Assembly: GCA_046292385.1 (NCBI GenBank)
Contig: JBKBRF010000074.1
Location: 1-20,977 of the forward strand
From: Armatimonadota bacterium
GTDB lineage: Bacteria; Armatimonadota; SYMT01
Direction: 5' to 3'
Length of the DNA: 20,977 nt
The position numbers were made by a program, and so were the translations under genes. Under the pieces are notes generated by a model that searched no databases, was not told the DNA's origin, and saw only the letters and a program-made list of their open reading frames with translations. Below, one piece after another: positions 1-20,363 of this stretch (position 1 is its first letter; every line of letters starts with the position of its first letter).

Positions 1-1
1 G

Positions 2-88
2 TTTGAAGATGGGAAACGCACCAAGTGCCTGGCGGCGATGAGCCGCGAGCGGGCAGCGGAACGCGAGTGGGAGAAGGTCGCCGCCTGA
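2..88 (+). CDS. Possible 3' end of a gene entering from the left edge (…FEDGKRTKCLAAMSRERAAEREWEKVAA*)
   Basis: Open frame from base 2 to TGA at 86-88, followed by AT-richer non-coding-looking sequence; too short to identify. Confidence 0.3.
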   Translation, partial: FEDGKRTKCLAAMSRERAAEREWEKVAA

Positions 89-297
89 TCCGCTTTTACA
101 CACCTATTGACAAGAGCTCCGGACCACCCGTTATCCATAGGTAACGAAACCGTCTGTTCCTCATCCGGAAGAAGTGAGGTGTGTCCCGTCTCTGGAGTAC
201 GCGGCTCCTTCACATCTTCGTGGGTATAACGGGTTATCCGCTTCTGGGACTCGGAGCGATCAGACTTCGCCATCAAGAACTTCTCCTGCGTTGATCC

Positions 298-3024
298 TTA
301 AGCGCTAGTAGGGACGGAAGGTGCGGATCGGCAGATGCCGGCCATGTCACACGTGCTGCACTTACCGCACCAGGAAGGTAGGGGTAATAGCTGATTCTGC
401 CGGAGCCGATCTCCAGCAGTAGTGACCGCTTTCACGGTCTGGGTGATCAGGTTCTGGTCTACAAGCTCACGAACCGAGCCCCCGTGATCAAGGTTGTGGA
501 TCTCGATCAGATCTGGGTGCCCGCCGAAGCGCTGCTCGTACCCCATCGCGTAAACGTGGAGTTGCATTCGCGTGACATCCTCAGGCTGGGCGCGCTCCAC
601 AGACTTGAAGTCAACTACGGCGACCTCGTCGGTCTCTACCTTTTTAATCAGGTCGATGCGGCCGTGGACCAGGATCCCGCCGGGTAGCGTGATCTCCACC
701 ACCTCCTCTACGTGGACCACCCGCTTGAGAGCGGGTCCGTTCTCGCGAAGGTAGAGCCCCAGTGCTTTCTCTGCCGAGCTACGGAGCTGTGCTTCCAGCT
801 CGGGATAGGCAAACCGCACGTGAAGGTGGGTGTCGAGCAGTTCCGGAATGTCTCTCTCCGAGAGCTCGTCTCCATTTAGAGCCCGACGGTGGACCTCCGC
901 TAGAGCGTTGTGGAGAGAGCGGCCGTAGCCGAGCGCCTCGTGAAGGGGGGCGTTGAAGCCGTAAAGGAAGCGGAGCTTGAACTGGTAGGGGCACTCGAAG
1001 AAATACTTGAGCTCGCTGAATGAGAGCTCCACGTTCACGAGGGGTACTCGCGGCTGCGGCTCCAGCTTGGGTCCGGGACATGACGGGGTCTCACGGGTGA
1101 GGAACTGCGGACAACGGGTCAGTTCTTCCCAGAACGCGGAAGGCCTTCGGTAAAGCTGATTGCCGGCATCGGGCGCCCACGAGCAGAAGAGATACTTTTC
1201 ACTGCGGGTCAGCGCTACGTAGAAGAGACGGCGCTCGTCCTCCACGGAGCTATCGAAGCGGTCCGCGTTTCGGATCCCGTGGCGCGGGAGGTGCTTCCAG
1301 ATCGCGTTGAACTGCTTTCGCCCGGGGAAGCGGTTTTTCTGCAGGCACGGAAGGAAGACGACCGGGTACTCCATTCCTTTCGACTGGTGGACCGTCATCA
1401 GCCGAACCGCGTCGGGCTGAGCGTAGGCGACATCCTGTCCGCCTTCCGGGTAGTAACCCGGCGCCTTGTAGCGAAGGAAGTCGACGAAGGACCGGTACTT
1501 CTCCTCGGGTCGGCTCTTGAAGTGGATCTCTTCGTAATCTGAGATCACCTGGCTGAACTTGCCCAGGTTGTAGTAGACCACTTCGCCACGGCCATCCGGG
1601 ACGCGTTCCTCTCGGAGCTGAACCGCTTCGAGAAAGTCGAGGTAGGTGCGCTGCAGGTTGTAGGTCGAGAACCGCTTTCCGGCCTCAAAGCCCCGTCTCC
1701 CTTCCAGCGTCGCGATTCCACGGTCGAGATCTGCCTCGTTGAGACCGAGTTCGGCCGCTTGCCACCGGAGCTTGACCGTCTCGGCATCAATTTCCCGCAC
1801 CATGAACTGAAAGACTGCGGCCGCCGCCTGCGCCTCGGGTGTATCGAAGAGCCCGGACATCCCGGTGACGATGTAGGGGATCCCGCGCTTCCTTAATGCC
1901 TCTACGATCGGGCCGCCGCAGTTCCGTACACTGCGGAGGAGAATGGCGCAGTCTGACCAGGACAGGCCTCTTGCCGTGCCGTTCTCCAGATACGGGGCGC
2001 CGCGAAGCGAAAGGATCCTTTCGGCGATCCACTCTGCTTCGGCTTCGGGGTCGTCGAATCGGAGCGCCAGCAGGTCCCCTCGTTCGAAGACCTGAGAGCC
2101 CCGGCTCACCATCTGCTTGGGCAGCCGGTTCGTGTTTGCCTCGACTGCCCTACGTGCGACATCCACGACGGCTGCACTACTCCGGAAGTTCGCCTCGAGA
2201 GGCCGCTGCAGCACGTTGGGATATCGCCGCGTGAAGGTGAGGATGTGCGAGACATCGCTCCCTCGCCACTGGTACACGTTCTGATCGTCATCACCCACGA
2301 CGCACAGGTTCGCGCCCAGCTCATAGAGCTGCCGCACCAACATCTCCTGAACCGGGTTGACATCCTGATACTCGTCAACGGTCAGATACTTCACCCGGTC
2401 CGAGAGAGCCGAGCGTAACTCCGCGTTGGTCTGAATCTCCACGACGGCCCGGAGCAGGATCTCGTCATAGTCGAGGTACCCGTGCTGGTCCAGGAGCGCC
2501 TGGTAGGATTCCAGCGCCGCCCGCGCTGGGTGATCCGCGAGGACCTCGGGATCCGCGTCGGCCCCTCTGAGCATCCCCAGGATTCCGGTGAAGAGGCGGG
2601 TGTCCAACCATCGTCGTAGGCCGAGGGAGTGCATTCCGCACTGGCGGTAGTACCGGTCGATGAAGAGCTGCTGCTTCACCTCATCCAGGATGTCGCACTT
2701 CAGATACCGATAGAGGTAGCGCTGCAGCAGGTCGAGACAGAAGCCGTGGATCGTGCCCACATACATCCCCGCGAGACCTTCAACGTGGCCGAACTCCGCT
2801 TCGTGGAGCCGCGAAATGCGGTCCTTGAGTTCCGCTGCCGCCTTCTCGGTGAACGTGAAGGCGACGATGTTCTCGGGAGTGATCCCATTTGCGGCCTGGC
2901 TCTTCAGAATGTGGATGATGCGGGCGGAGACGACACGGGTCTTGCCGGAGCCGGCACACGCCACGATCTGCAGATTCCGGTCAATACTCTCGATCGCTTC
3001 TCGCTGCTGCGGTGTGTGGCTCAT
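298..3024 (-). CDS. UvrD/PcrA-like SF1 DNA helicase fused to a C-terminal PD-(D/E)XK (RecB/AddB/Cas4-like) nuclease with 4 Cys
   Basis: Helicase motifs TPQQREAI, ACAGSGKT, FTFTEKAAAELKDR, GTIHGFC, VDEYQD, VGDDDQNVYQWRGS, LEANFRS, MTVHQSKGMEY, ERRLFYVALTRS. Nuclease motifs ECPYQF, GRIDLI, VVDFKS, QLHVY, CSTCDMAGIC. Confidence 0.93.
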   Translation of the reverse strand: MSHTPQQREAIESIDRNLQIVACAGSGKTRVVSARIIHILKSQAANGITPENIVAFTFTEKAAAELKDRISRLHEAEFGHVEGLAGMYVGTIHGFCLDLLQRYLYRYLKCDILDEVKQQLFIDRYYRQCGMHSLGLRRWLDTRLFTGILGMLRGADADPEVLADHPARAALESYQALLDQHGYLDYDEILLRAVVEIQTNAELRSALSDRVKYLTVDEYQDVNPVQEMLVRQLYELGANLCVVGDDDQNVYQWRGSDVSHILTFTRRYPNVLQRPLEANFRSSAAVVDVARRAVEANTNRLPKQMVSRGSQVFERGDLLALRFDDPEAEAEWIAERILSLRGAPYLENGTARGLSWSDCAILLRSVRNCGGPIVEALRKRGIPYIVTGMSGLFDTPEAQAAAAVFQFMVREIDAETVKLRWQAAELGLNEADLDRGIATLEGRRGFEAGKRFSTYNLQRTYLDFLEAVQLREERVPDGRGEVVYYNLGKFSQVISDYEEIHFKSRPEEKYRSFVDFLRYKAPGYYPEGGQDVAYAQPDAVRLMTVHQSKGMEYPVVFLPCLQKNRFPGRKQFNAIWKHLPRHGIRNADRFDSSVEDERRLFYVALTRSEKYLFCSWAPDAGNQLYRRPSAFWEELTRCPQFLTRETPSCPGPKLEPQPRVPLVNVELSFSELKYFFECPYQFKLRFLYGFNAPLHEALGYGRSLHNALAEVHRRALNGDELSERDIPELLDTHLHVRFAYPELEAQLRSSAEKALGLYLRENGPALKRVVHVEEVVEITLPGGILVHGRIDLIKKVETDEVAVVDFKSVERAQPEDVTRMQLHVYAMGYEQRFGGHPDLIEIHNLDHGGSVRELVDQNLITQTVKAVTTAGDRLRQNQLLPLPSWCGKCSTCDMAGICRSAPSVPTSA

Positions 3025-3053
3025 TGGGTGTTCCGAGCTTTACCGGGCCGTGG

Positions 3054-3224
3054 TCTCTACCGTGACCCCGGACGTTCAAAGCTGCCTGTCGGGGCGGCGG
3101 AATGCTTGGGCCACAAGCGGTTACTTGTACGTCCGCTTGCTTTCTACCTCCGTGGAGATTTCGTGGAGGTGAGTAGGGGCAACGGCGGCTAGTCTCCACA
3201 GTGCAGCGGGGGGCGCGGTAGAGG
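3054..3224 (+). ncRNA. Candidate structured RNA or ssDNA element (multibranch fold with possible loop-loop pairing)
   Basis: Nested inverted repeats 3055-3069/3209-3223, 3070-3079/3125-3134, 3081-3098, 3103-3119, 3137-3182; G-U pairs work on the + strand. Confidence 0.35.
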
Positions 3225-3276
3225 TGGAGCGATGGAGGTGCCCTGGTGCCCGGGAGCCAATCGCCCATGCGTGAGG

Positions 3277-4821
3277 TCAGGTAGCGCGCTTTGGGGCTCG
3301 TGGGGGACAGGTGGGTCGCGGGAGTGTCACGCGGCTGTCGCCGCTCCCGTTTACCGTTACCGCACAGGGTATCCCTGTGACCTCCAGGATCGCTGCAGAG
3401 ACCGGGATCGAGAAGCGGACGCCCCGAGCGTGGAACAGCTCCTCCATCGCTTTGCTGGGGAACTGGAGAGTCAGAGTGTCCTTCTCGAAAGAGTGCGGGA
3501 GTGCGTCAGCCACACAGGCAACCAGTGTTGCTGGGTTCCGGTGGAGGCGCTGCTGCCGCAACTGCTCCAGGATCGCAAGCCAGCGCAGCCGAATGGCGAC
3601 CAGGGCAACGGCATCCGGTCCTCGGAGCCGCTCCGGCATTTCCGCTCCGAGCATTGACGCGTAGAGAGCCCTCACCTCATCCGGCATGTCCGGGATCTCC
3701 AGTCGCTTCCCTTCGCGCATGCTCGCAAAGCTCTCCCGTAGCGTGGAGATCGGCGCGATCCCTTCTCCGAGGTAGGCCAGAAAGCCCCACGCCCACCGCC
3801 GCTGTTTGAAGCGGTAGCGGTCCGCCTGCTCTCTGGTAAGCGTGCCGCGACACCACCCCTCGTGGAGAGCGAGCAGCTCGTCCGTACTGGCTTTGAGGTA
3901 CTCCTCCAGGACTACGCGGTAGTCGTCCGGTCCTTCCTGGGACCAGAGTGAGAGCAGGTCCGGCAGCGACACGTGCGCCAGATGCTGCATCGGAGCGTGC
4001 GAACATTCGGTGTCGGCGTGCAGTCGGGCGGTGCCGTCGGGGAGGAACTCGGTCGGGCCGATGAGCCGGGGAACCGGAGGGCTCGGCGGTGATGGAGGTT
4101 CCGCCTCCATCCGGGCGGATGCGTGCCCCTCTGCAACCGCGATCAACTCCCGCAAGTAGCTAGCCTGTGCCTCGGAGAGCTGCGGGAACAGTCGGGCGAA
4201 CCTCTCGAGCGTTTCATCGCGCGAAGCTCTGCCGACGCCTGCAGCCGCTCCACGCAGCAGCCCCACGGCGAGCCGATCCCAGGCCTCGAAGAAGCCCGCA
4301 CCCCGGAGCGCTCGAATGAGTACGGGGTCCACTTGCCCGAGTACTTGCATCCACTGGCGGAGGAGCTCCTGACCCGCCTCATTTGCATCGGTGGAGTACC
4401 CGCAGCGCGCCGGTACGAGAGAACCGGCCACTCCTGATCGGCGATCTCGAAGGTCGGCGAGGACCAGGGCTCCGACCACGTCGATCACTGCGCCTGCCGC
4501 GAGAGTCTGGCTCCCGACACGAAACTGCGGCGGGGCGTCCCCACATCGAAGCAACGCCAGCAATGCCTCCGCGACAAGCACCTCTCGCTGGGCCGGGGTC
4601 AGTGCGCCAGGGCGGCGATTGCCACGAGGGTCGCGGAGGTGGGGATCGCGGAGGATCGGTTCGAACGGATGAACCAGCTCTTGCTGGACCATCTGCCGCA
4701 AGAAGTCGCAGAGCAGCACCGGCACTGAAACCGTGACCTGCTGCTCGACCGGCAGAGCCGAGTATGCGCCGGGGAGCGAGGATTGCAGGCCACCACGCAG
4801 GCTCCGCAGGAACTTTCGCAT
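3277..4821 (-). CDS. Hypothetical protein (~514 aa); C-terminal ~85 aa resemble the DnaX tau C-terminal / DnaA N-terminal type domain
   Basis: Long ORF; ATG 4821 preceded by AAGGAG. Pro-rich linker (PPSPPSPPVP). C-terminal pattern RWLAILEQL…LPHSFEKDTLTLQFPS…AAILEVTGIPCAVTV. Confidence 0.65.
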   Translation of the reverse strand: MRKFLRSLRGGLQSSLPGAYSALPVEQQVTVSVPVLLCDFLRQMVQQELVHPFEPILRDPHLRDPRGNRRPGALTPAQREVLVAEALLALLRCGDAPPQFRVGSQTLAAGAVIDVVGALVLADLRDRRSGVAGSLVPARCGYSTDANEAGQELLRQWMQVLGQVDPVLIRALRGAGFFEAWDRLAVGLLRGAAAGVGRASRDETLERFARLFPQLSEAQASYLRELIAVAEGHASARMEAEPPSPPSPPVPRLIGPTEFLPDGTARLHADTECSHAPMQHLAHVSLPDLLSLWSQEGPDDYRVVLEEYLKASTDELLALHEGWCRGTLTREQADRYRFKQRRWAWGFLAYLGEGIAPISTLRESFASMREGKRLEIPDMPDEVRALYASMLGAEMPERLRGPDAVALVAIRLRWLAILEQLRQQRLHRNPATLVACVADALPHSFEKDTLTLQFPSKAMEELFHARGVRFSIPVSAAILEVTGIPCAVTVNGSGDSRVTLPRPTCPPRAPKRAT

Positions 4822-4897
4822 GCCAGCTTCATCTCCTTCGGCGCTGCCTAGAGGCAGTAGCACGCGGCGAGCGACCCGGGACCCGGGCTGATGTTCA

Positions 4898-5584
4898 TCA
4901 GTCTTCGAGAAGCTCTCCGATTTCCACCCACTGTCGCCGTCCGACTTGTTCGAGATCCACCACCGAAGCGCGCCACACCGGCTCGTGCTCCCGGAGCATG
5001 CGGGCAGCATCCTGAAGAAAGCGCTGCGCGAGCTTCAGCGTCTCAGGTCTGTCTGGGCCGAGCTCCGACTTCACCCGGACGAACTCGCGGTTCACCAGGA
5101 TGCCGAGGGAACAATCGGTAAAGCGTGCCACGGCACTGAGGATGAACCCGGCCACAGCACCGGGGGTAGCTCCCTGAAAGTGGAGCATCGGCATTACCAC
5201 CGCACCACGCGGGTGAAGGTGTCCCTCGCAGCTCTGCACGGTTGTAAGACCCAGCTCGTTCAGGACCCGCACCAGGGCGGCGATCCGGGGTTCGAGAATC
5301 CCGAGTTGCCAGGCCTCTCCCTCTGGCCCCCGAACGGCATGGGCCAGGTAGGCGTCGGCGAACTCTTCGGGGGTGCAAGACGGACCCGTCGGAGAGAACC
5401 GACCGGCTTCGGGATCCCAGCCCTCCCGTCGATGCAGCGTGTCCAGGATGCGGGTCAGGAAGCTCCGGTTCTCCAGCGGCTCGGAGGAGAGGTCGATGAC
5501 CCCCTCGGCTCCGCCATTGGCGTAGAAGCCGTGATCCTGGAGCAACTCCCGCCATCCGTCCGGCGTCGTTTTGCCACTTCCCAC
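4898..5584 (-). CDS. Hypothetical protein with LEPRIAALVRVLNELGLTTVQSCEGH motif
   Basis: GTG start preceded by GGAGG; protein-like composition; the I-x2-LV-x2-LN-x2-G-x2-T-x2-SC-x-GH pattern is one I recall from phage/mobile-element hypothetical proteins. Confidence 0.75.
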   Translation of the reverse strand: MGSGKTTPDGWRELLQDHGFYANGGAEGVIDLSSEPLENRSFLTRILDTLHRREGWDPEAGRFSPTGPSCTPEEFADAYLAHAVRGPEGEAWQLGILEPRIAALVRVLNELGLTTVQSCEGHLHPRGAVVMPMLHFQGATPGAVAGFILSAVARFTDCSLGILVNREFVRVKSELGPDRPETLKLAQRFLQDAARMLREHEPVWRASVVDLEQVGRRQWVEIGELLED

Positions 5585-5654
5585 ACCCTTGCCTCCGTGC
5601 TGGTGCCCGGTGGTATCCCAGGCAACCTCACTCTTCGTTCACAGGAGATTCCCA

Positions 5655-7190
5655 ATGGACCTGCTCTCTGACTTCCTCGCGGACTTCAAGTCCGCCCGCC
5701 GGGTCGGCACCCCGCTCCTGGCGGTGGTGACCGCCGATCCTGCCGCGACCCAGCGCCTGCTCTCCCAGCAGCTCAAGGAAGGCACCCCGCTCCTCCAGTG
5801 GGACACGGTGGAAGGACTGGGGGCGCTGAATGAGCCGGGACGGGAAGCGCTGCTGCGGCTCTATCCCGATCCCGAGGCTCAGAAGGCCTCCGCCAATCCG
5901 CTCTACGCGCTGCAGGACGTGAAGAAGCTGGAGCCGCACTCCGTCCTCTTCCTGCACAACCTCCACCGGTTTCTGGAGGACCCCGCCGTCTGTCAGGGGC
6001 TCTGGAACCTGCGGGACTGGTTCAAGACGAGCCGCCGGATGGCGGTGGTGCTCTGCCCTTATCTGGAGCTCCCGCCGGAGCTGCAGCAGGACGTGGTCCT
6101 ACTGGAGGAGCCGCTCCCCGGAGACGACCAGCTCACCGGCATCCTGGAACGACAGTACACCGCGCTGCAGGCGAGCGTGGGGGAGAGCGTGCCCGATCCG
6201 GAGCCGGAGCTGCTGCGCCGGGGCGTGGAGCTACTGCGGGGGCTCTCGGCCTACGCGGCGGAGCAGACAACGGCGATGGCGATGACCCCGGAAGGGGTGA
6301 ACCTGGAGAAGCTGGGGAGCTTCAAGCGGCGGCAGATCGAGCAGACCCGGGGACTGACCCTCAACCGGTCCGGGGAGACCTTTGCTGACATCGGGGGTCT
6401 GGAGCAGATCAAGCGAGTCCTCCTGCGGCTTCAGCAGGGTCCGCGCCCGTTCCGAGCGGTGGTGCGGCTGGACGAGATTGAGAAGGCGCTCGCCGGGGCT
6501 TCCGGTCCGCAGGCCGACTCTTCTGGGGTCTCCCAGGACGCACTGCTGATGCTGCTTACTGCCATGGAAGACCACGGCTGGACCGGCATCCTTGCGGTAG
6601 GACATCCCGGCAGCGGGAAGAGCGTGATCTCGAAAGCGGCGGGCAATACCTTTCAGATCCCGACCCTCAACATGGATCTGGGGGGAGCGAAGGGCGGGAT
6701 CGTCGGAGAGAGCGAGGCGCGCATCCGCGCGATGCTGCGGGTGATCCACGGGATCGCCGGAGACGGGGCGCTCTTCCTCGCCACCTGCAACCGGCTGGAA
6801 ACCCTCCCTCCGGAGCTGCGGCGGCGGTTCCGGCTCGGAACGTACTTCTTCGACCTGCCGACCCGGGAGGAGCTGGACACCATCTGGAGCCTCTGCCTGC
6901 GCCAGTTCGAGCTCGACCCGGAGCAGCCCCGGCCCGAGGATACGGACTTCACCGGAGCGGACGTGCGGAACACCTGCGAGCTGGCCTACCTGATGGGCTG
7001 TTCCCTGGTGGAAGCGGCCGAGGCGATCACCCCGACTGCCCGCACCGACATGGAAGCGGTCACCCGGCTCCGTCAGTTGGCGCACGGAAAGTTCCGGTCG
7101 GCGTCCCGTCCTGGGTTCTACCGTTACCAGGAGAAACAGGTCGGGGGTGGAGAGCGGATGCTGGAGTTGGGCACGGGCGAGCGGGTGTAG
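5655..7190 (+). CDS. Ycf46-like AAA+ ATPase with degenerate N-terminal AAA domain and a C-terminal AAA domain with swapped Walker blocks
   Basis: ATG 5655 with AGGAGA RBS. Motifs LFLHNLHRFLED, LPPEL, TFADIGGLEQIK, VVRLDEIEK, GHPGSGKS, IVGESEARIR, LATCN, LPPELRRRF, FFDLP, FTGADV. Confidence 0.9.
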   Translation: MDLLSDFLADFKSARRVGTPLLAVVTADPAATQRLLSQQLKEGTPLLQWDTVEGLGALNEPGREALLRLYPDPEAQKASANPLYALQDVKKLEPHSVLFLHNLHRFLEDPAVCQGLWNLRDWFKTSRRMAVVLCPYLELPPELQQDVVLLEEPLPGDDQLTGILERQYTALQASVGESVPDPEPELLRRGVELLRGLSAYAAEQTTAMAMTPEGVNLEKLGSFKRRQIEQTRGLTLNRSGETFADIGGLEQIKRVLLRLQQGPRPFRAVVRLDEIEKALAGASGPQADSSGVSQDALLMLLTAMEDHGWTGILAVGHPGSGKSVISKAAGNTFQIPTLNMDLGGAKGGIVGESEARIRAMLRVIHGIAGDGALFLATCNRLETLPPELRRRFRLGTYFFDLPTREELDTIWSLCLRQFELDPEQPRPEDTDFTGADVRNTCELAYLMGCSLVEAAEAITPTARTDMEAVTRLRQLAHGKFRSASRPGFYRYQEKQVGGGERMLELGTGERV

Positions 7191-7306
7191 GCGCGGATCG
7201 CCGGCGCGGTATCGGTCCACCGGAGTCGTTCCGTGGATCGGCTATAGAGGACTTGCTGGGAGCCTGGTGAGATCGGGCTCCCGTTTTCACATCTGGGGAG
7301 TAAGCA

Positions 7307-8305
7307 ATGATCGCGACCGACGAGGACGTACTCACTGCGCTGACGGAGCCGCCGTTTCCGGTGGGGGAGGTTCCCGCCGAGCCTGGTGAGTCTGGTACGC
7401 GTGTACCAGATCATGTCATTTCTGATTCGCCGCTTTCTGGGAAGGCGGTCTGCCTGGCGGTGACGATCCGGGCGCTCGGCACCCGGCGCACCGTGGAGAG
7501 CAGCCGGATCGAGACCGACGCGGACCGCTCCCTGGTGCACGTGGGGAAGGAGATCCTGGATTGCCCGGAGGTCGACGCCCTGCGAGGGCAGGAAGGTCGC
7601 ATCCGGAAACATCTGCGGAGGAAAACGGTTCCGTCGCTCGTGTTTCGGCGAGGAGTGACCCTCTGTCCGCTGGCCTCGCTGGATGAGGTGGACGCCACCC
7701 TGTTCGCCTTCCAGCAGGAGCGACGGGAGATGGTCGAAGCGCTGGTGGCCGCGCTTCCTGCCCGGGTCGAGGAGGCGCGAGAGCGGCTGGGGAGTTGGTT
7801 TGATGCGTCGGATTACCCCTCTCCGGAGCGCATCCGGGCGGGGTACGAGCTGGAGTGGAGATACCTGGCGGCGGCAGTACCGGGCTCTCTGAAGACGTTC
7901 CGACGCGACATCTACGAGCGGGAGCAGGAGAAGATCGAGGAACTGTACCGGAAGGAATGGGAGTATGTGCGCCAGTGCCTGCGCCTGGAACTGAACGCTC
8001 TGGTGGAGCACCTGGCCGAACGGCTTACTCCCACGGCCACGGGCGAGAAGAAGGTGTTCAAATCGTCGACCGTGACCGAGCTGCTCGACTGGATCCGGAG
8101 CTTCGACCCGCGTAACCTGACCGACGACCAGGAGCTGGCCGGGACGGTGCAGCGACTGGAGCGACTGCTGCAGGGGATAGACCCGGAGACCCTGCGAAAA
8201 TCTGAGAGCGCCCGAAATCTGATCCGGGGTGGCCTGGACGTGGTGCGAACCAGCCTGACGGCGCAGATCGTCTCCGTAGAACGAGCATACGATTTCGGGG
8301 ACTGA
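7307..8305 (+). CDS. DUF3150-like helical protein of mobile elements
   Basis: ATG 7307 with GGGGAG RBS; helical charged protein with LG-x2-FD-x2-DYP and GEKKVFKSSTV patterns; sits directly after an AAA ATPase. Family assignment is from memory. Confidence 0.65.
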   Translation: MIATDEDVLTALTEPPFPVGEVPAEPGESGTRVPDHVISDSPLSGKAVCLAVTIRALGTRRTVESSRIETDADRSLVHVGKEILDCPEVDALRGQEGRIRKHLRRKTVPSLVFRRGVTLCPLASLDEVDATLFAFQQERREMVEALVAALPARVEEARERLGSWFDASDYPSPERIRAGYELEWRYLAAAVPGSLKTFRRDIYEREQEKIEELYRKEWEYVRQCLRLELNALVEHLAERLTPTATGEKKVFKSSTVTELLDWIRSFDPRNLTDDQELAGTVQRLERLLQGIDPETLRKSESARNLIRGGLDVVRTSLTAQIVSVERAYDFGD

Positions 8306-8329
8306 CGTACCCCACGGCCGTACTTCCGG

Positions 8330-8647
8330 TTACGGAGCCGGATGGAGGAGCGATCGGTCGACAGCGTCTACGTCACCTCCATGGCTGCCATCCAGCAGGT
8401 CCCCGGCATACAGCGCCGCCCCGGGGTGGGGCGGCTTCAGGCGGACTATGGGCGGAGGTACGACTCCGGCGTCATGGGTGAAATCCATCTCCCGTAGCTC
8501 CCAGACCTCGCCGGTCTTCCGGTGCCGGTATTGCGGGTGCTCCGGGTCGAGCCGTCCCGCCAAGACGCGAAGCACCGCGAGAGTGGTGAACGGTGTTTCC
8601 GGTTCCGGGGAGATCACCTCGACGGTCGTGACGTGGTGGGTATTCAT
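8330..8647 (-). CDS. Small hypothetical protein (105 aa)
   Basis: ATG with upstream GAAGGGG; fills the gap between convergent genes without overlap. Confidence 0.55.
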   Translation of the reverse strand: MNTHHVTTVEVISPEPETPFTTLAVLRVLAGRLDPEHPQYRHRKTGEVWELREMDFTHDAGVVPPPIVRLKPPHPGAALYAGDLLDGSHGGDVDAVDRSLLHPAP

Positions 8648-8834
8648 TGCGATGGTGCACCCCTTCTCGGGAGCTATGGCGTGGAATAGCTAATACCGCA
8701 CAGATCACGGAGAGTTATTTCCGTAGCCACGGTGAATTCGTGCCTGGCAGAGGGAGTTAATGCGACACAAATAGATCTGGTTCTTTCTAGATCCGTTAAT
8801 GGCCGCCGCCTCCCTTCTCCCTGGTGCTCCTGGT

Positions 8835-10319
8835 CTATAGGTCCTTCCTCTCCAGTTCGGTCGGGATGCCCTGATCCATCGCCTCTGCTTGTATTTCACG
8901 GCCGATCCTGTGGATCTGACGCTCGCGCTCTGCACGATCGGTACTCCGGAGGATCACCCCATCGTGGAGCCAGGCCAGGATGCGCAGGTCTTTCTCCTCT
9001 CGAATAACGTGCCACAGTTTCCGCATCAGCCGGAGCTCGTAGCTCTGCGTTTGCTGGGAGAGGAGTGAGCGGACCGACCTCTGCGATCGGTTCGGTAGCG
9101 CGATCCACCGGCCGAATGCATCGCGAACCCCATCCTCGGCCCGAACGCGCTGCATGGCCGATTTGCGGGCTTCCAGCAGTTCCTCGATCTGCGGTAGGTG
9201 CTCGAACTCGCGGGCCTTACTCTCTCCGATGCCGGGCTCGGCAGCGGTGCCACACGCCAGGCGCTGGCGGATCTTGCCCATGTTCCCCCCGAACAGGATC
9301 GAATAGATCGAGATCTTCAGGATCGGTTTGCGGTCCGTAACCCCAAGCGCGTCCAACAGGTATTCCCAGATCGACCAGCCCTCACCCAGACGGCGCTGCA
9401 GGTCGGTCAGTCCCCACAGCTTTGAGACGATCGCCAGCTGGCAGGACCGGAGGTCCAGCTGGATCGCTCCCCGGAACAGCATGGCGCGTAGCTCCCGGGG
9501 TAGCTGGTTCACGCTGAGGGTGGCCGGGTAGATCCGTACGGAGTTCTCCACCGGTCGGTAGAGCACGCGGGGGGCCTGGGCGGTGCGCAGCATGATCTGG
9601 GCCGCCAGCTGCAGTCGGCGCCGGTCCCGGTCGGTCTCTCTCGGCATCTGGAGGATCTCCGCTCGCACGGACCCCCAGTTCGCCCGGAGCACCCGGTTGA
9701 ATGCGTGCAGGGGCTGCGCGTTCAGAAACTCCACCAGCTCCCGAGCGGGATGGTCTGTCAGGAGGGGCGCGGCGTCCGCCAACAACTCGTGTTCCCGCGC
9801 GCGCAGTTGGCTGTCCCGGGAACCGGCGGCCATCCGCCTGCCGGTGACCCAATCCACCAGCTCCGTCGGTCTTGTGAACTCCTCCGGGATCTCGTGGGCC
9901 AGGAGGTTCAGCAGCTCGGTGGGAAACTCCGGTTCGACCGTGCGGGCGAGACCTCGCTCGTGGTCGTATGGCCGTTCGTGGAGGGGGAGCACCTGCTCCT
10001 CAAACTCGCGAAGTCGCCGGCCGGAGCGGAAGCCCCCGGAGTGGGGGTGAATGTTCCACATGGCAGCGAGGGTGGCGTGTGGCACGATCAAGCGGCCAGT
10101 CAGCTCCTCCCGGTAGCTGCTAGTGAGGAGATATTGGAGCAGTTGCCGGTTGGCTGTCGCTGGTGGTTCCTCTCCCGCCAGGGCCGGGTAGAGTTGGAGC
10201 ACTCGCTCCCGGGTGGACGGCTGCAGCAGCAGCGGATCGAGCGAGAACGTGGCGGCGGCAACCCTTGCCTGGGCAGGGTCGATGGTGGGGGCATCGGCCC
10301 CCGTCTGCGGGTCGTACAT
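8835..10319 (-). CDS. Compact family-A-like nucleotide polymerase (TV-Pol-like), no recognisable exonuclease domains
   Basis: Motifs in PolA order: VRIYP…VNQLPRELR, motif A IQLDLRSCQLAI, motif B RKPILKISIYSILFGG, DAFGR, QQTQSYE, motif C ILAWLHDGVIL. RBS GAGAGGA. Confidence 0.75.
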   Translation of the reverse strand: MYDPQTGADAPTIDPAQARVAAATFSLDPLLLQPSTRERVLQLYPALAGEEPPATANRQLLQYLLTSSYREELTGRLIVPHATLAAMWNIHPHSGGFRSGRRLREFEEQVLPLHERPYDHERGLARTVEPEFPTELLNLLAHEIPEEFTRPTELVDWVTGRRMAAGSRDSQLRAREHELLADAAPLLTDHPARELVEFLNAQPLHAFNRVLRANWGSVRAEILQMPRETDRDRRRLQLAAQIMLRTAQAPRVLYRPVENSVRIYPATLSVNQLPRELRAMLFRGAIQLDLRSCQLAIVSKLWGLTDLQRRLGEGWSIWEYLLDALGVTDRKPILKISIYSILFGGNMGKIRQRLACGTAAEPGIGESKAREFEHLPQIEELLEARKSAMQRVRAEDGVRDAFGRWIALPNRSQRSVRSLLSQQTQSYELRLMRKLWHVIREEKDLRILAWLHDGVILRSTDRAERERQIHRIGREIQAEAMDQGIPTELERKDL

Positions 10320-10559
10320 CGAGTCATCCTCTCTGGCCGGGTGTCCAGATCGTGCAGCTCTCCCGGCCTCACAAAATCAGGTGGTCAATTCGGGCTGGCG
10401 TGCCTGTAACCGGTACGCTGGTGATTGCGGTTACAGTTGAGCTTGTCCGCCGAGTTCGGGCGGGTGGAATCAGGTAAGATGCTTCGGACGGTGGGAGCGG
10501 AAGTTCCCCCAGTTCTTCGCTTCCTCATTCTTAGAATCAAAAGTTACACGCGGAACATG

Positions 10560-11609
10560 TCATCCTCTCCGCAGCAGCAGGCTCCGCCCAGCCCAGAGTT
10601 CGGACCTGCTCTCCTGTTCGGAGACAAGCTCCCCACCCAGATTTGCGAGCACAACCCCCAGGCAATCCGGGTTCAGGATCCGGAGGTGCTGCGTCGCACC
10701 CGTCTGCTCTTCAAGACCGCGTGATGCGGCATAGCGCATCCTACCGTCTGGCCGCACGGCAGCTGCCTGGAACAGGTTCCGGCGCATGTATCCGGCCAGG
10801 CGCAGGGGGTCGGCCTTCGCAGGATCTCCAGGGTGGATGAACCCCTCGCCCCAGGTCTGCTGGAGTAACTCCTGGTCCAGATCCTCGGCGGTGGCCGCGT
10901 GAATATGCAGCGCGGGTTTCCCTTCCGGACAGGTGCGCTTCTCATGGGGCGCACCAATCGCCAGGTAGGGAACACGCCTCTCCAGGCGGTAGTTCAGTCT
11001 TCTCCAGAACCGGGTCAGATGGTCGGACATTACGTTCCAGTCGGAGACAGGTTCACTGAACGTGAGGGTCCACAGAATGCCCAGGTCATTCGCCAGGATC
11101 TTACGAAAGAGCGTGCCGGCGGCCTTACGATCTCCCTGGTCTCGGTAGGAGTCCCGATCCCGAGTGATAGGCTGTGTACGCGCACGTGGTGTTAGATACC
11201 AGCCCCGGTAACCGTAGTAGACGGAGGTGTAGTTTCCCAGGATGCGGATGCTTACATTACGCCAGTCATCCGCCACGCGAATACGTTCATCCAGATCTGC
11301 GGGAGCTACATTCGTGTCTGGTAACCCGGCTAGTGTCTCGACCAGCTCATCCGTCCCGGTAGGCGGTTCCGGTAGAAGTATTCGGCCTCCAGATTTCGGG
11401 TGAGTCCACCGTAGAGTAGAACCTTTGGAACCAGTCCCATACGTGGGGTACAGGCTCTCGTGATTACGGATTCCCGAATGCGGGCTTCTGTATATTTCGT
11501 CGTAACTCTCCTCACTTATCGAGTAAGGGGAGCTCTCCTCCGCGACTGCAAAGGGGTCGGCTTCCAGCTCGGGGAGCCAGGCGTCATCCAGTAGCTCGGT
11601 CTCGTACAT
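10560..11609 (-). CDS. Rolling-circle replication initiator-like HUH endonuclease
   Basis: Motif I LWTLTF, helix FWRRL, motif II LHIHA, WGEGF, motif III LAGYMRRNL, RY-x2-SRGL. ATG 11609 preceded by GGAGAG. Confidence 0.8.
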   Translation of the reverse strand: MYETELLDDAWLPELEADPFAVAEESSPYSISEESYDEIYRSPHSGIRNHESLYPTYGTGSKGSTLRWTHPKSGGRILLPEPPTGTDELVETLAGLPDTNVAPADLDERIRVADDWRNVSIRILGNYTSVYYGYRGWYLTPRARTQPITRDRDSYRDQGDRKAAGTLFRKILANDLGILWTLTFSEPVSDWNVMSDHLTRFWRRLNYRLERRVPYLAIGAPHEKRTCPEGKPALHIHAATAEDLDQELLQQTWGEGFIHPGDPAKADPLRLAGYMRRNLFQAAAVRPDGRMRYAASRGLEEQTGATQHLRILNPDCLGVVLANLGGELVSEQESRSELWAGRSLLLRRG

Positions 11610-11879
11610 CGCTGCGCTCTCCGGCGGCAACCTCCGTCTCGCAGATCCCGCTCGGGGACCCGATCGACGGAGTAGCCGCCCGGTCGAGGCAGGCACGGCA
11701 GCAGCCCGGCACACGCACGAAGACGAAGCCCCCCTGATCCTGGTCACGCCAGAACACAGGGGACAGGTCTACCCGGGTACAGGGGCGCGACTCCGTGCCG
11801 CTCACCGGAGTTTCGGTGCGGTGAGGGTTGGGGTTACGCGCAGACCCCGGCGGCGCTGCTGCTGCCGTTCCTGCCGGGG

Positions 11880-12056
11880 TTAGGGCGTGGGTGCTCCGAC
11901 GACTCCCGCTGTCAGCCAGCAGGGAGCGGGGCGGGGGAGACTCGCCCGAACGGGGGAGCACCAGTGGCTCCGGGGCGAGAGAGCGGCGCTACTGGGGGCG
12001 CGAAGCGGTGGGAGTGGGCGCGGGCCACCGAGCCCGCAGTTGCATCTCAAATCCAT
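11880..12056 (-). CDS. Possible 58-aa peptide (MDLRCNCGLGGPRPLPP…)
   Basis: ATG at 12056 preceded by AAGAGGA, stop TAA at 11880-11882; co-oriented between xis and rep. Composition is not convincing. Confidence 0.25.
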   Translation of the reverse strand: MDLRCNCGLGGPRPLPPLRAPSSAALSPRSHWCSPVRASLPRPAPCWLTAGVVGAPTP

Positions 12057-12155
12057 TCCAGGTTCCTCTTAGTCCAGGCCAGAGTGTCATTCACCAGTTC
12101 AGAGAGTCAGCGTGTTGAGCCGAGCTGGGCTGCGTGGGTAACCGCTTCGTCGGCA

Positions 12156-12449
12156 CTACCGATCCGTAAGCTGCAGCAGCCGGGCAGTGAGCGCAGTGCG
12201 GGGGATCCGCAGGTGCCGTCCGATGCGGAACGCCGGGATGACCCCCTGCCGGATCGCATCGCGAACCGAGGTCTGCCCGACCTGCAGGAGATCGGCGGCC
12301 TCGCAGACCCGCAGCCACTCAGGCGGGGAAAGGGGCACCGGGGCCGGGGCGGGGTGGTAAGAAGCCGCCCGTCGGCGGCCTCTACAGCGAATCGTCATGA
12401 TCGGGCGTAGTCGTTCGTCCATGGCAGATCTCCGTGGTCTCCATTCCAT
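12156..12449 (-). CDS. Excisionase-family (HTH_17 / MerR-like) DNA-binding protein; start uncertain
   Basis: WLRVCEAADLLQVGQTSVRDAIRQGVIPAFRIGRHLRIPRTAL is a typical Xis winged HTH; divergent from the integrase operon. Confidence 0.85.
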   Translation of the reverse strand: MEWRPRRSAMDERLRPIMTIRCRGRRRAASYHPAPAPVPLSPPEWLRVCEAADLLQVGQTSVRDAIRQGVIPAFRIGRHLRIPRTALTARLLQLTDR

Positions 12450-12564
12450 CGCGTCATCACCGGTTCAGGGAGTCAGATGGGCGCCGGAGTAGTTCAGCCG
12501 GTATCTAGTCGTGCGTCGACTGCAGCACGCCACTGATGGCCTAGTAGAACGCTCCGGGCTCCAC

Positions 12565-12573
12565 TGGTATAAT
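12565..12573 (+). promoter_or_regulatory. Extended -10 promoter (TGGTATAAT) for the Zn-finger/integrase transcript
   Basis: Exact TGnTATAAT in GC-rich DNA, 10 nt before ATG 12584. Confidence 0.6.
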
Positions 12574-12583
12574 GATACACAAC

Positions 12584-13723
12584 ATGAGCGACTACTGTGA
12601 AGCAGGTTCGGAAGAAACACGCCTGGGAGCATCCGGAGATCGGAGAAATGTTCCGATCAGGGCCACCGGAATACCCTGGATGCGCCGCCGGTATAAGGTG
12701 GATGGCCCTTACCTCGTTCCGGTGCCGGAGACAGAGGCGGTGGACTATGTGCCGCTGGCGCACTACCGCGCTCCCGGAGCCGAGGAGCGGTCGCCGTATT
12801 TCGACTTTCTGGAGAGCGACGAGGAACATCTGCCCACGCTGGGGGGCCTGGCGAACCACTGGGGGCCGCTCGGCCTGCTCCAGCGCCAGGTAGTCCAGAT
12901 CCGCTACCTGCTCGGCCCGGAGCATCCGCTCCTCGCGCCGTTCGGCTTGCCGGGTACGCTGGAGGTGACGGATCTACCGCAGGGATTTGAATACGAGCCT
13001 GGGACCTACCGGCTCCGGTTCGGCAAGGGAGCCACACTCCCGGATCAGCTGATACCGGAGATCGAAGAGCGCCTGCGGGAAGCCGGTATCCGCCGCTGGT
13101 TTGATGCGGAAGCGGGGAAGGCGTGGGCGCTGGTGAGCGATCCGGTTACCGGCACGCTGCGAGAGCTACCCCTCTATCGGGTGCTCCGTCCGTACCTGCC
13201 CCAACTCTGGGCAGAGACCGGCAGGGCTCCAGAGGGGGAGGCGCTCCAGGACGGCTGGCGACTCGCTGATCTGGTGTGTGAACCGGTAGCGGAGGTTCAG
13301 CAGGCGCTCCAGGATTTCCGGAATGTCTATGCCGGGGTAGCCGGCTACACCGACGACCGCACCAGGATTTCCGAGGCGCCGGAGGCGCAGTGCCAGCTCA
13401 CTCGTGCCCTCCGGCGGGTGTCCCCCCGGGTGGCGATGATTCCCCCGGTGGACACGGCAACTGGAGACCCGGGCTGGAGGTCGGGCTGGACGACTCCGTC
13501 TCTGCTCGACTCCCTCTACACGATGCTGTGGCTCGACATCAACCGGGGCTACTACGTGCGGATTTGCGGCAATGAGAGCTGCGCGAAGGGGCTGGGACGG
13601 CGCAAGCCCTTCATCACGGATCAGCTGAAAAACCGCTTCTGCTCCACCAAGTGCTACCACGTGCAGCGGCAGCGAGAGTACCGCGAGGAGCAGAAGCAGA
13701 GACGCGCGGCTGCGCCAGACTGA
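12584..13723 (+). CDS. Protein with C-terminal CGNR-type zinc finger, probable element regulator
   Basis: C-terminal ICGNESC…FIT…RFCSTKC followed by basic helix QRQREYRE. Start moved to ATG 12584 because ATG 12572 overlaps the -10 box. Confidence 0.75.
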   Translation: MSDYCEAGSEETRLGASGDRRNVPIRATGIPWMRRRYKVDGPYLVPVPETEAVDYVPLAHYRAPGAEERSPYFDFLESDEEHLPTLGGLANHWGPLGLLQRQVVQIRYLLGPEHPLLAPFGLPGTLEVTDLPQGFEYEPGTYRLRFGKGATLPDQLIPEIEERLREAGIRRWFDAEAGKAWALVSDPVTGTLRELPLYRVLRPYLPQLWAETGRAPEGEALQDGWRLADLVCEPVAEVQQALQDFRNVYAGVAGYTDDRTRISEAPEAQCQLTRALRRVSPRVAMIPPVDTATGDPGWRSGWTTPSLLDSLYTMLWLDINRGYYVRICGNESCAKGLGRRKPFITDQLKNRFCSTKCYHVQRQREYREEQKQRRAAAPD

Positions 13724-13784
13724 GCCGCGAACGGGGATACGGAAGCTGAATTGGGCGAGAGCGACTTTGAATAGGAGAGAGACC

Positions 13785-14963
13785 ATGCGAGGGCATGTAC
13801 GGAAGCGGGCGAAGGGGTCGTGGACGCTGTGGATCGACCTGGGCTACGACGAGACCGGCAAACGTCGCCAGAAGACGTTTACGGTGAAAGGCAACAAGCG
13901 CGAGGCCGAGGCGGAGCTGAACCGGATCCTGAATGAGCTGAACACCGGCGTCTACGTGCAGCCCGCGAAGCTCACAGTGGCGGAGTACCTGGAGCGCTGG
14001 CTCACGGACTACGCCCAGACGAACGTCAGCCCTAAGACGCTCGAAAACTACACGGAGTTCGTGCGCAAACACCTGATCCCCGCGTTCGGCAACCAGTTGC
14101 TGGCGAAGCTGACGCCGCTGCACATCCAGAGCTATTACACGCGGGCGGTGCAGACCGGGAGGCGGGATGGAAAGGGCGGCCTCTCCGCCCGGACGGTCCT
14201 CCATCACCACCGGGTGCTGCGGGAGGCGCTCCAGCAGGCGGTCAAGTGGCAACTACTGGCCCGTAACCCCGCCGACGCTGTGCAGCCACCCCGTCCCGGC
14301 CGAACGGAGCTCGGCGTCCTCACCGTCGACCAGATGCGCACGCTGGTGACAGTCGTCAGGGAGACCCGGCTCTACATCCCGATCTTGCTCGCGGTCTCCA
14401 CCGGGATGCGCCGGGGGGAAATCCTGGGTTTGCGCTGGCGGGACGTGGACCTGGCCGCCGGGGTGATCTCCGTCCGCCAATCGGTTCAGCAGACCCGCTC
14501 CGGCCTTCACTTCAAGGAGCCGAAGACCCAGAAGAGCCGGCGCTCGCTCCTCCTGCCCTCGACGGTAGTGGCGGCCCTAGTTGCTCACAGACAAGCGCAG
14601 GAGCAGATCCGACAGCAAGTTGGCGCTGCCTATGACGACCGGGATCTGGTGGTGGCGGGTCCGGATGGCAAGCCGTTCTCTCCGGCCGCCTTCACCCAGG
14701 CATTCCGGCTGCTCGTGAGCCGCACAGACCTACCCCAGGTCCGGTTCCACGACCTGCGCCACAGCCACGCGACTCGGCTGTTTCAGCAGGGCACCCACCC
14801 TAAGATCGTGAGCGAGAGATTGGGTCACTCGACGGTGGGGATCACTCTTGACGTGTACTCCCACGTCCTCCCCGGAATGCAGAAGGAAGCGGTGCTCCAG
14901 ATCGACGCAGACCTGCGAGAGCCGGAAGCGGCAGACGGGGGCACACTCCCGCCAGACGGCTGA
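13785..14963 (+). CDS. int: Tyrosine recombinase/integrase (ICEBs1/phage-like) with N-terminal arm-binding domain
   Basis: RBS AGGAGA; N-terminal MRGHVRKR…GKRRQKT; catalytic TGMRRGEILGL, PKT, RFHDLRHSHAT, RLGHS, TLDVYSHV. Confidence 0.96.
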   Translation: MRGHVRKRAKGSWTLWIDLGYDETGKRRQKTFTVKGNKREAEAELNRILNELNTGVYVQPAKLTVAEYLERWLTDYAQTNVSPKTLENYTEFVRKHLIPAFGNQLLAKLTPLHIQSYYTRAVQTGRRDGKGGLSARTVLHHHRVLREALQQAVKWQLLARNPADAVQPPRPGRTELGVLTVDQMRTLVTVVRETRLYIPILLAVSTGMRRGEILGLRWRDVDLAAGVISVRQSVQQTRSGLHFKEPKTQKSRRSLLLPSTVVAALVAHRQAQEQIRQQVGAAYDDRDLVVAGPDGKPFSPAAFTQAFRLLVSRTDLPQVRFHDLRHSHATRLFQQGTHPKIVSERLGHSTVGITLDVYSHVLPGMQKEAVLQIDADLREPEAADGGTLPPDG

Positions 14964-15026
14964 GATCTCGGGCAGGTGAACGGAGTGCGGACAGCACGGT
15001 GCGTGCCTGAACCGTGCTTGCAGGCG

Positions 15027-15046
15027 CGTTAGCAATTCGTTAGCAA
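15027..15046. repeat. Tandem CGTTAGCAA x2 (11-bp period), probable integrase arm-type sites
   Basis: Copies at 15027-15035 and 15038-15046, between the int stop and the tRNA 3' end. Confidence 0.6.
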
Positions 15047-15089
15047 AACGTCCGCTCCTCGCGGTTTTCACCGTACGAGGGCGGACGTT
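15047..15089 (-). terminator. Hairpin just downstream of tRNA-Ser
   Basis: AACGTCCGC-TCCTCG…CGAGG-GCGGACGTT inverted repeat, followed on the - strand by a short T run. Confidence 0.55.
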
Positions 15090-15096
15090 CCAGGCA

Positions 15097-15181
15097 CGGA
15101 GGGAGTGGGATTCGAACCCACGGAGACTTGCGCCTCACCTGTTTTCAAGACAGGCTCCTTAAACCACTCGGACATCCCTCC
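15097..15181 (-). tRNA. tRNA-Ser (anticodon TGA), CCA not encoded
   Basis: Acceptor GGAGGGA/TCCCTCC plus discriminator G; D arm CCGAGTGGTTTAAGG; anticodon arm CCTGT-CTTGAAA-ACAGG; long variable arm; T arm GTGGG-TTCGAAT-CCCAC. Confidence 0.97.
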
Positions 15182-19750: not shown

Positions 19751-20302
19751 TTACTCAGTTCCAGCTTCGCCTTCTCCCTGTTCCGTCGTTGCTTCCGGTT
19801 CCGCTGCGGCCGGGGCGGCTTCCGCTGCCGGAGCTTCCGCCGCCGGAGCTTCCGCTGCCGGAGCTTCCGCTGCCGGGGCTGCTGCTGCCGGCGCGGCTGC
19901 TGCCGCTTCCGCGGCGGCGGCTGCTTCCGCCTCGGCGCGGGCACGGGCTTCCGCCTCTGCCTGCGCGCGGGCTTCCGCGTTCGCCTTCGCCTCCGCCAGC
20001 TCGCGATCTGCCTGCTTGTCGTCCTTGCGGACGCTGAGCTGGCGGATCACGCCGTCGGTGATGCGCAGCACGCGGTTGACTTCGGCCTCGGCTGCGGGCG
20101 CGCCACGGTAGTTCATCACTACGTAGTAGCCTTCGCGGCGGCCCTTGATCTCGTAGGCCAGGCGGCGGCGTTCCCACCGCTCCACATGCTCTACGCTGCC
20201 ACCCTGCTCTTCGACTAGCGTCTGAAAGCGGTTGACCAGCGACCCCTGCTGTTCCTCATCCAGCATCGGGTCGATGATGTACATCAGTTCGTACCGATTC
20301 AT
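19751..20302 (-). CDS. rpsF: 30S ribosomal protein S6 with long Ala/Glu/Pro-rich tail
   Basis: MNRYELMYIIDP, WERRRLAYEI, EGYY; RBS GGAGGTG; first gene of rpsF-ssb-rpsR. Confidence 0.97.
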   Translation of the reverse strand: MNRYELMYIIDPMLDEEQQGSLVNRFQTLVEEQGGSVEHVERWERRRLAYEIKGRREGYYVVMNYRGAPAAEAEVNRVLRITDGVIRQLSVRKDDKQADRELAEAKANAEARAQAEAEARARAEAEAAAAAEAAAAAPAAAAPAAEAPAAEAPAAEAPAAEAAPAAAEPEATTEQGEGEAGTE

Positions 20303-20310
20303 GGTTCTCA

Positions 20311-20363
20311 CCTCCCTTCGGACACCCAGGATTGGGCAGCCCCGGTACGAGCGGGGCAGGGAC
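20311..20363 (-). promoter_or_regulatory. S6:S18-type ribosomal protein leader RNA
   Basis: TCCCT pairs with AGGGA of the RBS, enclosing hairpins GCCCC/GGGGC and TGCCCA/TGGGTG, with an unpaired CCG just before the RBS strand, as in the known S6:S18 motif. Confidence 0.65.

Follow-up and report, generated by a model that had tools for sequence, protein, structure and literature searches.

Polymerases related to PolA in mobile elements

TV-Pols, which are related to PolA and to the T7-like RNA polymerases, were predicted in 2008 to act as primase-polymerases (Iyer, Abhiman and Aravind, PMC2579912). As defined there, they possess a minimal PolA-like core composed of a thumb, an Arg-bearing hairpin, and a palm with two Asp residues; they lack a nuclease, and their fingers are helix-turn-helix (HTH)-like with an RxxxK motif. 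A subset with an N-terminal globular domain occurs beside resolvases, lambda-type integrases, or transposases, where restriction-modification genes abound (PMC2579912). According to the sections of PMC7581432 drawn on here, the only bench-tested enzyme of this general kind is CcPol-MP of SCCmec, the TV-Pol prediction being otherwise untested. CcPol is an A-family polymerase that primes with deoxynucleoside triphosphates (dNTPs), and does so only together with MP, an OB-fold protein resembling SSBs, the proteins that bind single-stranded DNA. It strongly prefers dNTPs and keeps the equivalents of the sugar-discriminating residues numbered E710 and F762 in Klenow, which exclude ribonucleotides (PMC7581432). 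Here, we describe a polymerase gene from an Armatimonadota bacterium, located on a 20,977-base stretch (the window) that is one whole contig of a 7.04-Mb, 91-contig genome. The gene (P0001; 8835..10319, minus strand; 494 amino acids [aa]) translates as a single open frame and most likely encodes the DNA polymerase of a mobile element integrated at a tRNA-Ser gene. Its family is likely a further member of the kind predicted in 2008 (PMC2579912).

A compact family-A polymerase domain

The GC content by codon position of the polymerase gene (0.71/0.45/0.81) is typical of coding sequence and resembles that of other genes in the window. The protein is without a match to any family model of Pfam, PHROGs, NCBIfam, or PADLOC; PF00476 gives no match to it, and it falls below the gathering score of that model. 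Kinship was assessed with an alignment of 14 homologues from a word-based search (A1; 29-39% identity) and with eight Pol I polymerase domains from bacterial relatives of the host (A2). When searched against 177,635 PDB sequences, the A1 profile retrieved Taq Pol I variants only (12 distinct sequences; E 0.007-0.024), and hhalign aligned A1 to A2 over 233 columns (E 2.5e-4, probability 43%). In a scan of 100 relatives, PF00476 was the sole Pfam family matched by more than one member, and it was matched weakly, by 4 of the 100 at E<=0.01 (best E 5.4e-4; 19.4 bits against a cutoff of 34.3). A PF00476 search of the host genome retrieved two other genes only.

Structure comparison gave the same assignment. 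An AlphaFold2 model built on A1 (mean pLDDT 89.2, pTM 0.84) matched 168 PDB chains at E<=0.001 by Foldseek, with Bst, Taq, and Klenow fragments on top (best match, E 5.1e-8; TM score by query, ~0.42). All of the 50 best structural matches listed are DNA polymerases, and no RNA polymerase is found among those 50. The matches of a structure search of the ESM Atlas with the polymerase model include PF00476 clusters (TM score by query, 0.54-0.56). The predicted structure possesses a thumb, palm, and fingers of the Klenow type. The preliminary description of this gene, made from the letters of the DNA, had called it a minimal PolA-superfamily enzyme without apparent exonuclease motifs, and this description is borne out: the active site is intact and strongly conserved, the fold is matched by both Foldseek and hhalign, the Pol I structural matches span residues 172-494 only, and the 494-aa protein matches no nuclease family in Pfam, PHROGs, or NCBIfam. 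Residues ~173-494 (8838..9803) are thus modeled as a full, albeit very compact, polymerase domain of family A, with thumb, palm, and fingers and with neither an exonuclease domain for proofreading nor a 5' nuclease. At ~320 residues, this domain contrasts with the ~550 residues of canonical family-A enzymes (Pol I, T7 DNA polymerase, and Pol theta). Longer members of the family (516-701 aa) contain no recognizable fused domain in 15 of 15 cases scanned, save one weak PF00476 match. The parts of PMC10201439 drawn on here sort PolAs into 19 clusters and mention neither TV-Pols nor a family like the present one.

The motifs read in the preliminary description are all present, and hhalign places each on its Pol I counterpart. 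The RxY motif described as preceding motif A (VRIYP, residues 261-265) overlaps a beta-hairpin, YRPVENSVRIYP (9525..9560; strands 254-256 and 263-265 in the AlphaFold2 model), whose R262 is paired with the Arg of the Pol I TGR(L)SS motif; R278 is paired with the next conserved Arg. Motif A, IQLDLRSCQLA (9432..9464), contains D289-L-R-S-C-Q294, with the Asp codon at 9453-9455, exactly as first described. Of the Pol I DYSQIE motif, the Asp is paired with D289 and the Glu, the steric gate, with Q294 (codon 9438-9440). Motif B, the O-helix, KPILKISIYSILFG (9288..9329), reads K331-x3-K335-x3-Y339-x3-F343-G344, and these five residues are paired with R, K, F, Y, and G of the Pol I RRxAKxxNFxxxYG motif. 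Farther along, Q425-S-Y-E428 (9036..9047) aligns through Q425 with the Gln of QGTAxD, both by hhalign and in the HMMER alignment of the profile to Taq, two alignments that also agree on motifs A and C. Motif C, WLHDG (8958..8972; D453 codon, 8961-8963), coincides with the Pol I VHDE motif, with H452-D453-G454 on HDE. By this alignment to Pol I, D289 and D453 are the putative two metal-binding catalytic Asp residues, and R262, R278, and Q425 are the predicted template/primer contacts. The register of motif B is not beyond doubt, because an alignment to Taq by HMMER shifts it by 4 residues relative to hhalign, placing F343-G344 on the FG of NFG. Of the two registers, we favor that of hhalign, as it sets each of the four conserved O-helix residues on its counterpart.

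Conservation of the active site

Conservation was counted over 153 family members, fragments included, aligned to the A1 model. D289 and R262 are identical in 153/153 relatives and R278 in 152/153, while K335 is Lys in all 152 relatives aligned at that position and D453 is Asp in all 149 aligned there. Q425 is kept in 148 and E428 in 150 of the 153. Within the O-helix, position 331 is Lys in 147 relatives and Arg in 3, position 339 is Tyr in 145 and Phe in 4, and position 343 is Phe in 105 and Tyr in 47; an aromatic residue is therefore retained at both of the latter positions across the family. Position 294 is Gln in 142 relatives, His in 9, and Gly in 2, and position 454 is Gly in 144, Ser in 3, and Ala in 2; Glu is never found at either. 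Although these counts are partly circular, the 153 relatives having been selected by their fit to the family profile, they show an active site under selection. They also mark the steric-gate Gln and the motif C Gly as hallmarks of the family and not as an accident of one gene.

Canonical family-A polymerases carry Glu at the steric gate and in HDE, where this family has Gln and Gly, and their O-helix motif, R-x3-K-x3-[FYL]-x3-Y-G, appears here in a variant form in which Lys replaces Arg and the final Tyr is mostly Phe. In ~320 residues, the family offers a natural and compact version of the Pol I active site. In Klenow both of these Glu residues are important, and the preliminary description had proposed from their replacement that the enzyme may accept ribonucleoside triphosphates (rNTPs). 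The motif C of T7 RNA polymerase, HDS, counts for such a reading. Gln is, however, as bulky as Glu, the 50 best structural matches are DNA polymerases, and the O-helix aromatics are kept. Furthermore, the Tyr with which T7 RNA polymerase reads the 2'-OH presumably corresponds to F343, a position occupied by Phe in 105 of the 153 relatives. Acceptance of rNTPs thus appears unlikely.

The N-terminal domain

The preliminary description had treated the first ~250 residues as a single unrecognized N-terminus. As one piece, this region does not stand: residues 23-165 (9825..10253, minus strand) form a separate conserved domain, and residues ~173-250 belong to the polymerase fold. Conservation of the domain extends to 28 homologues, in which R37, R126, and G160 do not vary, and the AlphaFold2 model of this stretch contains helices and short strands. 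Its profile matched nothing among the PDB sequences. For the ESM Atlas's own model of the domain, the nearest structural neighbors are Rep3_N, RepA_N, MarR, and ArsR clusters (TM score, 0.40-0.54), the first two being replication initiators and the last two regulators; all are winged helices. As a weak lead from these models, residues 23-165 may constitute a winged-helix DNA-binding domain.

Family size and distribution

An exhaustive profile search retrieved 1755 clusters (50% identity) at E<=0.001, 1360 at E<=1e-10, and 990 at E<=1e-30. Most of these clusters are 460-530 aa long and match the profile from end to end. The family is thus large and spans several phyla, and none of the annotation libraries searched covers it. 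The named records (12 loci) are metagenome-assembled genomes of Armatimonadota, Patescibacteria, Phycisphaerales, Trueperaceae, Rhodothermia, and Rubricoccaceae. A tblastn search of plasmids gave one match, a Deinococcus megaplasmid gene annotated "hypothetical protein" in RefSeq, and the same search of 50,697 phage records gave none; one IMG/VR contig carries a family member. Within the host phylum, matches were found in 14 of 201 sampled genomes (2 of 7 in the host family), several of them broken or partial. A paralogue at 37% identity lies in a second element of the same genome. The distribution is patchy and accessory. In a search of sequencing runs, the sole full match to the DNA is a metagenome, which may be its source, and no RNA run is listed.

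The element carrying the polymerase

The polymerase gene lies in an element with its own tyrosine integrase (13767..14963, plus strand; PF00589, E 7.2e-27; phrog_1, E 3.5e-83). The integrase gene adjoins the 3' end of a tRNA-Ser(TGA) gene predicted by ARAGORN (15097-15181, minus strand; feature 15093..15181), which is the integration site. A 58-bp att repeat at 15093-15150 has no second copy within the window itself; an exact copy is found at positions 2527-2584 of another contig of the same genome (C79), without a surrounding tRNA. Hence the element extends beyond the window's left end. It takes in positions 1-15092 of the window and 2.5 kb or more of C79, with an unassembled gap between them, and so measures at least 17.6 kb; no overlap was found between the ends of C79 and those of the window contig.

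On the minus strand of the element, the gene order is a Rep-like gene, the polymerase, and a 105-aa open reading frame (ORF). The Rep-like gene (P0002; 10560..11609), putatively of the rolling-circle HUH type, lies 240 nucleotides (nt) upstream of the polymerase on the same strand; its ORF is open to 11747, with a probable start ATG at 11609. Among the PHROGs models, it matches phrog_3584 at E 4.9e-11, annotated "replication initiation protein," and phrog_3419 at E 7.3e-6, annotated "rolling circle DNA replication initiation"; it also matches PF23343, below the cutoff (E 1.9e-4; 22.1 bits against 27.8). The protein contains H-I-H at residues 281-283 (10899-10907) and, 37 residues downstream, Y320 within Y-M-R-R. 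A word-based search of 5.8 billion proteins retrieved only the window's own copy, and no PDB match was found.

Neighborhoods across the family

To place this arrangement in context, 31 nonredundant loci were compared: 25 and 4 from homologue searches, the window, and the second element of the same genome. A site-specific recombinase occurs in the retrieved stretch of 17/31 loci (7 with a serine recombinase/resolvase and 11 with a tyrosine integrase, including 1 with both); the 14 loci without a recombinase include several short contigs. At least 11/31 loci have nearby restriction-modification or defense genes (MmeI, AlwI, Mrr, type I systems, Shedu, AbiJ, and DUF4007), and two further loci, L023 and L043, carry the antirestriction gene ArdC. 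In an all-against-all comparison of neighbors, recombinases alone recurred in more than three loci, and no immediate upstream or downstream ORF was conserved except between near-identical elements. The preliminary description had paired the polymerase with an HUH Rep. A Rep-like gene is indeed present upstream here, but as a family trait the pairing fails, being found in 1/31 loci. Among the 30 other loci, no Rep-like gene was detected by Pfam (E<=1e-4 or 1e-5; 263 and 52 ORFs) or by PHROGs (E<=1e-6; 105 neighbors), the latter scan covering 105 of the 149 ORFs of >=120 aa within 3 kb, with those having a Pfam match left out.

The second integrative element of the genome is located at a tRNA-Gly(CCC) gene on contig C7 (L015:757-12141). 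It encodes, in order, the polymerase paralogue, a 155-aa ORF, a 1387-aa protein, a ParB_N protein, and a tyrosine integrase. The 1387-aa protein joins an N-terminal PD-(D/E)XK nuclease to a C-terminal SF1B helicase and is partially similar to MkoA in PADLOC. The polymerase is paired with a helicase-nuclease in both elements of the genome, the two helicase-nucleases being of different families.

In the closest relative genome, a polymerase homologue and two tyrosine recombinase genes adjoin the gene (L070:4-6462) for a 2152-aa polyvalent protein with SLT transglycosylase, PBECR3 nuclease-like, and LPD38 domains. Polyvalent proteins of this sort typically belong to conjugative or phage-like elements.

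Comparison with TV-Pols, CcPol-MP, and pipolins

The present family shares with TV-Pols, as these are described in PMC2579912, a minimal nuclease-less core, two catalytic Asp residues, and an Arg hairpin, represented here by R262 between two strands. It also shares the additional N-terminal domain and the occurrence in integrase- or resolvase-bearing elements amid restriction-modification genes. Several features differ from that description. The fingers motif is KxxxK here and RxxxK in TV-Pols, Arg occupying the first position in only 3 of the 153 relatives; the N-terminal domain is predicted to be alpha+beta and winged-helix-like, whereas that of TV-Pols is termed "all-helical"; and an HUH Rep-like gene is present in the element described here. 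The phyla represented here (Armatimonadota, Deinococcota, Rhodothermota, Patescibacteria, and Planctomycetota) lie mostly outside the species list of PMC2579912. A relation to TV-Pols had been raised in the preliminary description. The architecture and the genomic setting agree with it and match the integrase/resolvase-linked subset, but the sequence link to a TV-Pol candidate is not significant (see below). From anatomy and setting, membership is likely.

Like CcPol-MP and the Bacillota PolA-SSB primases (PMC7581432, PMC10061031), the present enzyme is an A-family polymerase encoded on an integrative element, together with site-specific recombinases and cargo related to conflict. In both cases the polymerase gene is directly followed downstream by a small ORF, the MP gene in SCCmec and the 105-aa ORF here. 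In contrast, CcPol keeps part of a 3'-5' exonuclease domain, which the present family lacks, and its E710 and F762 equivalents align with Gln and Tyr here. CcPol needs MP and lies next to the Cch2 helicase, whereas here no downstream ORF is conserved and no such helicase is adjacent. Instead, a winged-helix-like domain is fused to the polymerase. Finally, the hosts here are not Bacillota. Pipolins are likewise integrative elements with their own polymerase, a recombinase, and defense cargo, but their polymerase is a primer-independent family B enzyme and not family A; the resemblance is therefore one of analogy and not homology (PMC7385651, PMC11551731).

Proposed function

On balance, we favor a reading in which the element encodes this protein as its replicative DNA polymerase, one that also initiates chains. 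The Pol I fold, the active-site residues, and the location in integrative elements are as described above; the steps that follow are proposed. The integrase would excise the element, and the polymerase would then copy the circle, with its N-terminal domain holding the template or origin and its PolA core making DNA with dNTPs and starting chains de novo, as a primase-polymerase of the TV-Pol/CcPol type. Because no other replication gene is conserved beside the family, we infer that the polymerase binds the template and starts chains itself; the priming activity is suggested by analogy with CcPol-MP. In the present element, the HUH Rep would probably nick the origin and supply the first 3'-OH for extension by the polymerase. 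Either the polymerase or the host primase would convert the displaced single strand to duplex, and it is mainly for this conversion that the polymerase would be needed. The UvrD/PcrA-like helicase of the element may unwind the duplex, a link to the polymerase that we also infer.

A more far-reaching version is possible, if doubtful. The family would be a single-chain replicase, in which an origin- or template-binding winged helix is fused to a PolA core that starts de novo without an SSB or helicase partner, and its elements would be the family-A counterpart of pipolins. The invariant Gln and Gly would be adapted to the initiating nucleotide, and here the polymerase, HUH Rep, and UvrD-like helicase would together make up a rolling-circle replisome complete in itself. 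The family could reveal what enables a family-A polymerase to initiate chains, and the polymerase gene could serve to mark a class of defense-carrying integrative elements.

Several observations weigh against a replicative polymerase that starts chains. The proposed priming follows the analogy of CcPol, yet CcPol alone does not prime and requires MP (PMC7581432). No MP-like or helicase partner is conserved beside the polymerase family in the loci compared. Both intergenic regions flanking the polymerase gene fold no better than shuffled sequences as single-stranded DNA (z -0.26 and, for the 187-nt spacer at 8648-8834, z -0.54), and no single-strand origin is therefore evident in them. The winged-helix matches, made against predicted models, lie under the bar for naming a family, and the conservation counts carry the circularity noted above. 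With Gln in place of the steric-gate Glu and Gly in place of the HDE Glu, the kinetics could be unusual. A search with the A1 profile gave no match anywhere in the record of Microcystis phage Ma-LMM01, an accepted source of a TV-Pol. MAP_030 of that phage (506 aa, beside two transposase genes) is our own TV-Pol candidate, since the text of PMC2579912 does not name the gene. Its hhalign comparison with the polymerase is not significant either as a single sequence (E 0.052) or as a five-member family (E 0.025), with a probability of 1-2%. The alignment (E 0.025, probability 2%) is nonetheless colinear over the hairpin with its Arg, over D-x3-C-H, over the Lys and Gly of the O-helix, and over Q-S-x-E and H-D-G. 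The phage family of MAP_030 showed no similarity to Pol I by hhalign.

An alternative that we regard as rather unlikely is a strand-displacing polymerase that depends on primers throughout, extending the 3'-OH of the Rep nick or the 3' ends left by a recombinase or made by host primase and never starting chains; it would then be an ordinary accessory polymerase. All structural relatives are primer-dependent DNA polymerases, CcPol alone just extends primers (PMC7581432), and the Rep-like nickase gene close upstream on the same strand would provide a suitable end. However, no Rep was found in the 30 other loci, nor do they share a conserved primase gene, which would leave the family reliant on host priming, and the fused, conserved N-terminal domain is left without a role in simple extension.

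A nonreplicative role is improbable, be it the repair of gaps following integration or excision or participation in defense or counterdefense with the neighboring cargo. The restriction-modification and defense genes near the polymerase in at least 11/31 loci fit such a role, as does the resemblance of the helicase-nucleases of both elements to GajB or MkoA helicase modules in PADLOC. The polymerase itself, by contrast, has no PADLOC match, and the cargo varies by locus while the pairing of polymerase and recombinase recurs, a pattern typical of a core element gene. Similarly improbable is an RNA polymerase or ribonucleotide-incorporating enzyme: TV-Pols are related to T7-like RNA polymerases as well as to PolA (PMC2579912) and both active-site Glu residues are missing throughout the 153 relatives, but the bulk of the substituting Gln, the identity of the 50 best structural matches, and the Phe at position 343 argue otherwise, and CcPol, which alone among relatives has been tested, has a strong preference for dNTPs, though it keeps the Glu (PMC7581432).

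Other genes of the element and the window

The 105-aa ORF directly downstream of the polymerase (P0003, p105; 8330..8647, minus strand) has a coding-like GC content by codon position (0.76/0.45/0.75). It has no match in Pfam, PHROGs, PADLOC, or NCBIfam and no homologue beside the polymerase in the other loci. The spacer between the two genes is poorer in G+C than its surroundings and contains a short inverted repeat, GATCT..AGATC. A search for repeats, promoters, and terminators around the Rep and polymerase genes revealed nothing notable.

A 332-aa ORF (7307..8305, plus strand) is convergent with the polymerase operon and likewise has no match in Pfam, PHROGs, PADLOC, or NCBIfam. Over 192 aa, it shares 36% identity with an ORF located 1.7 kb from a polymerase homologue in another genome (L074:7-588), where the orientation relative to the polymerase is also convergent. 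It is the only nonrecombinase neighbor found to be common to distant elements.

Toward the left end of the element, a 908-aa protein (298..3024, minus strand) combines a UvrD/PcrA-like superfamily 1 (SF1) helicase with a C-terminal Cas4-like PD-(D/E)XK nuclease (PF00580, E 4.1e-56; PF13361, E 9.5e-35; PF12705, E 1.7e-23). Its best NCBIfam model is PcrA, far below the cutoff, and it has GajB-like helicase matches in PADLOC; it could be a rolling-circle unwinding motor or a defense gene. The element also contains a 577-aa ORF (3277-5010, minus strand) that matches PF20964, the DNA polymerase III tau C-terminal domain, weakly and below the cutoff (E 1.6e-4). A 539-aa AAA ATPase (5571-7190, plus strand) is matched over only the Walker A half of the AAA domain, plus phrog_8638.

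Elsewhere in the window, a 264-aa ORF (19751-20545, minus strand) contains ribosomal protein S6 at residues 84-173. The 3' part of this ORF contains, at 19788-19934, eight tandem copies of a GC-rich unit with a 15-nt period, of the GCTTCCGC(T/C)GCCGGA type, which give the protein a repetitive, low-complexity C-terminal tail.

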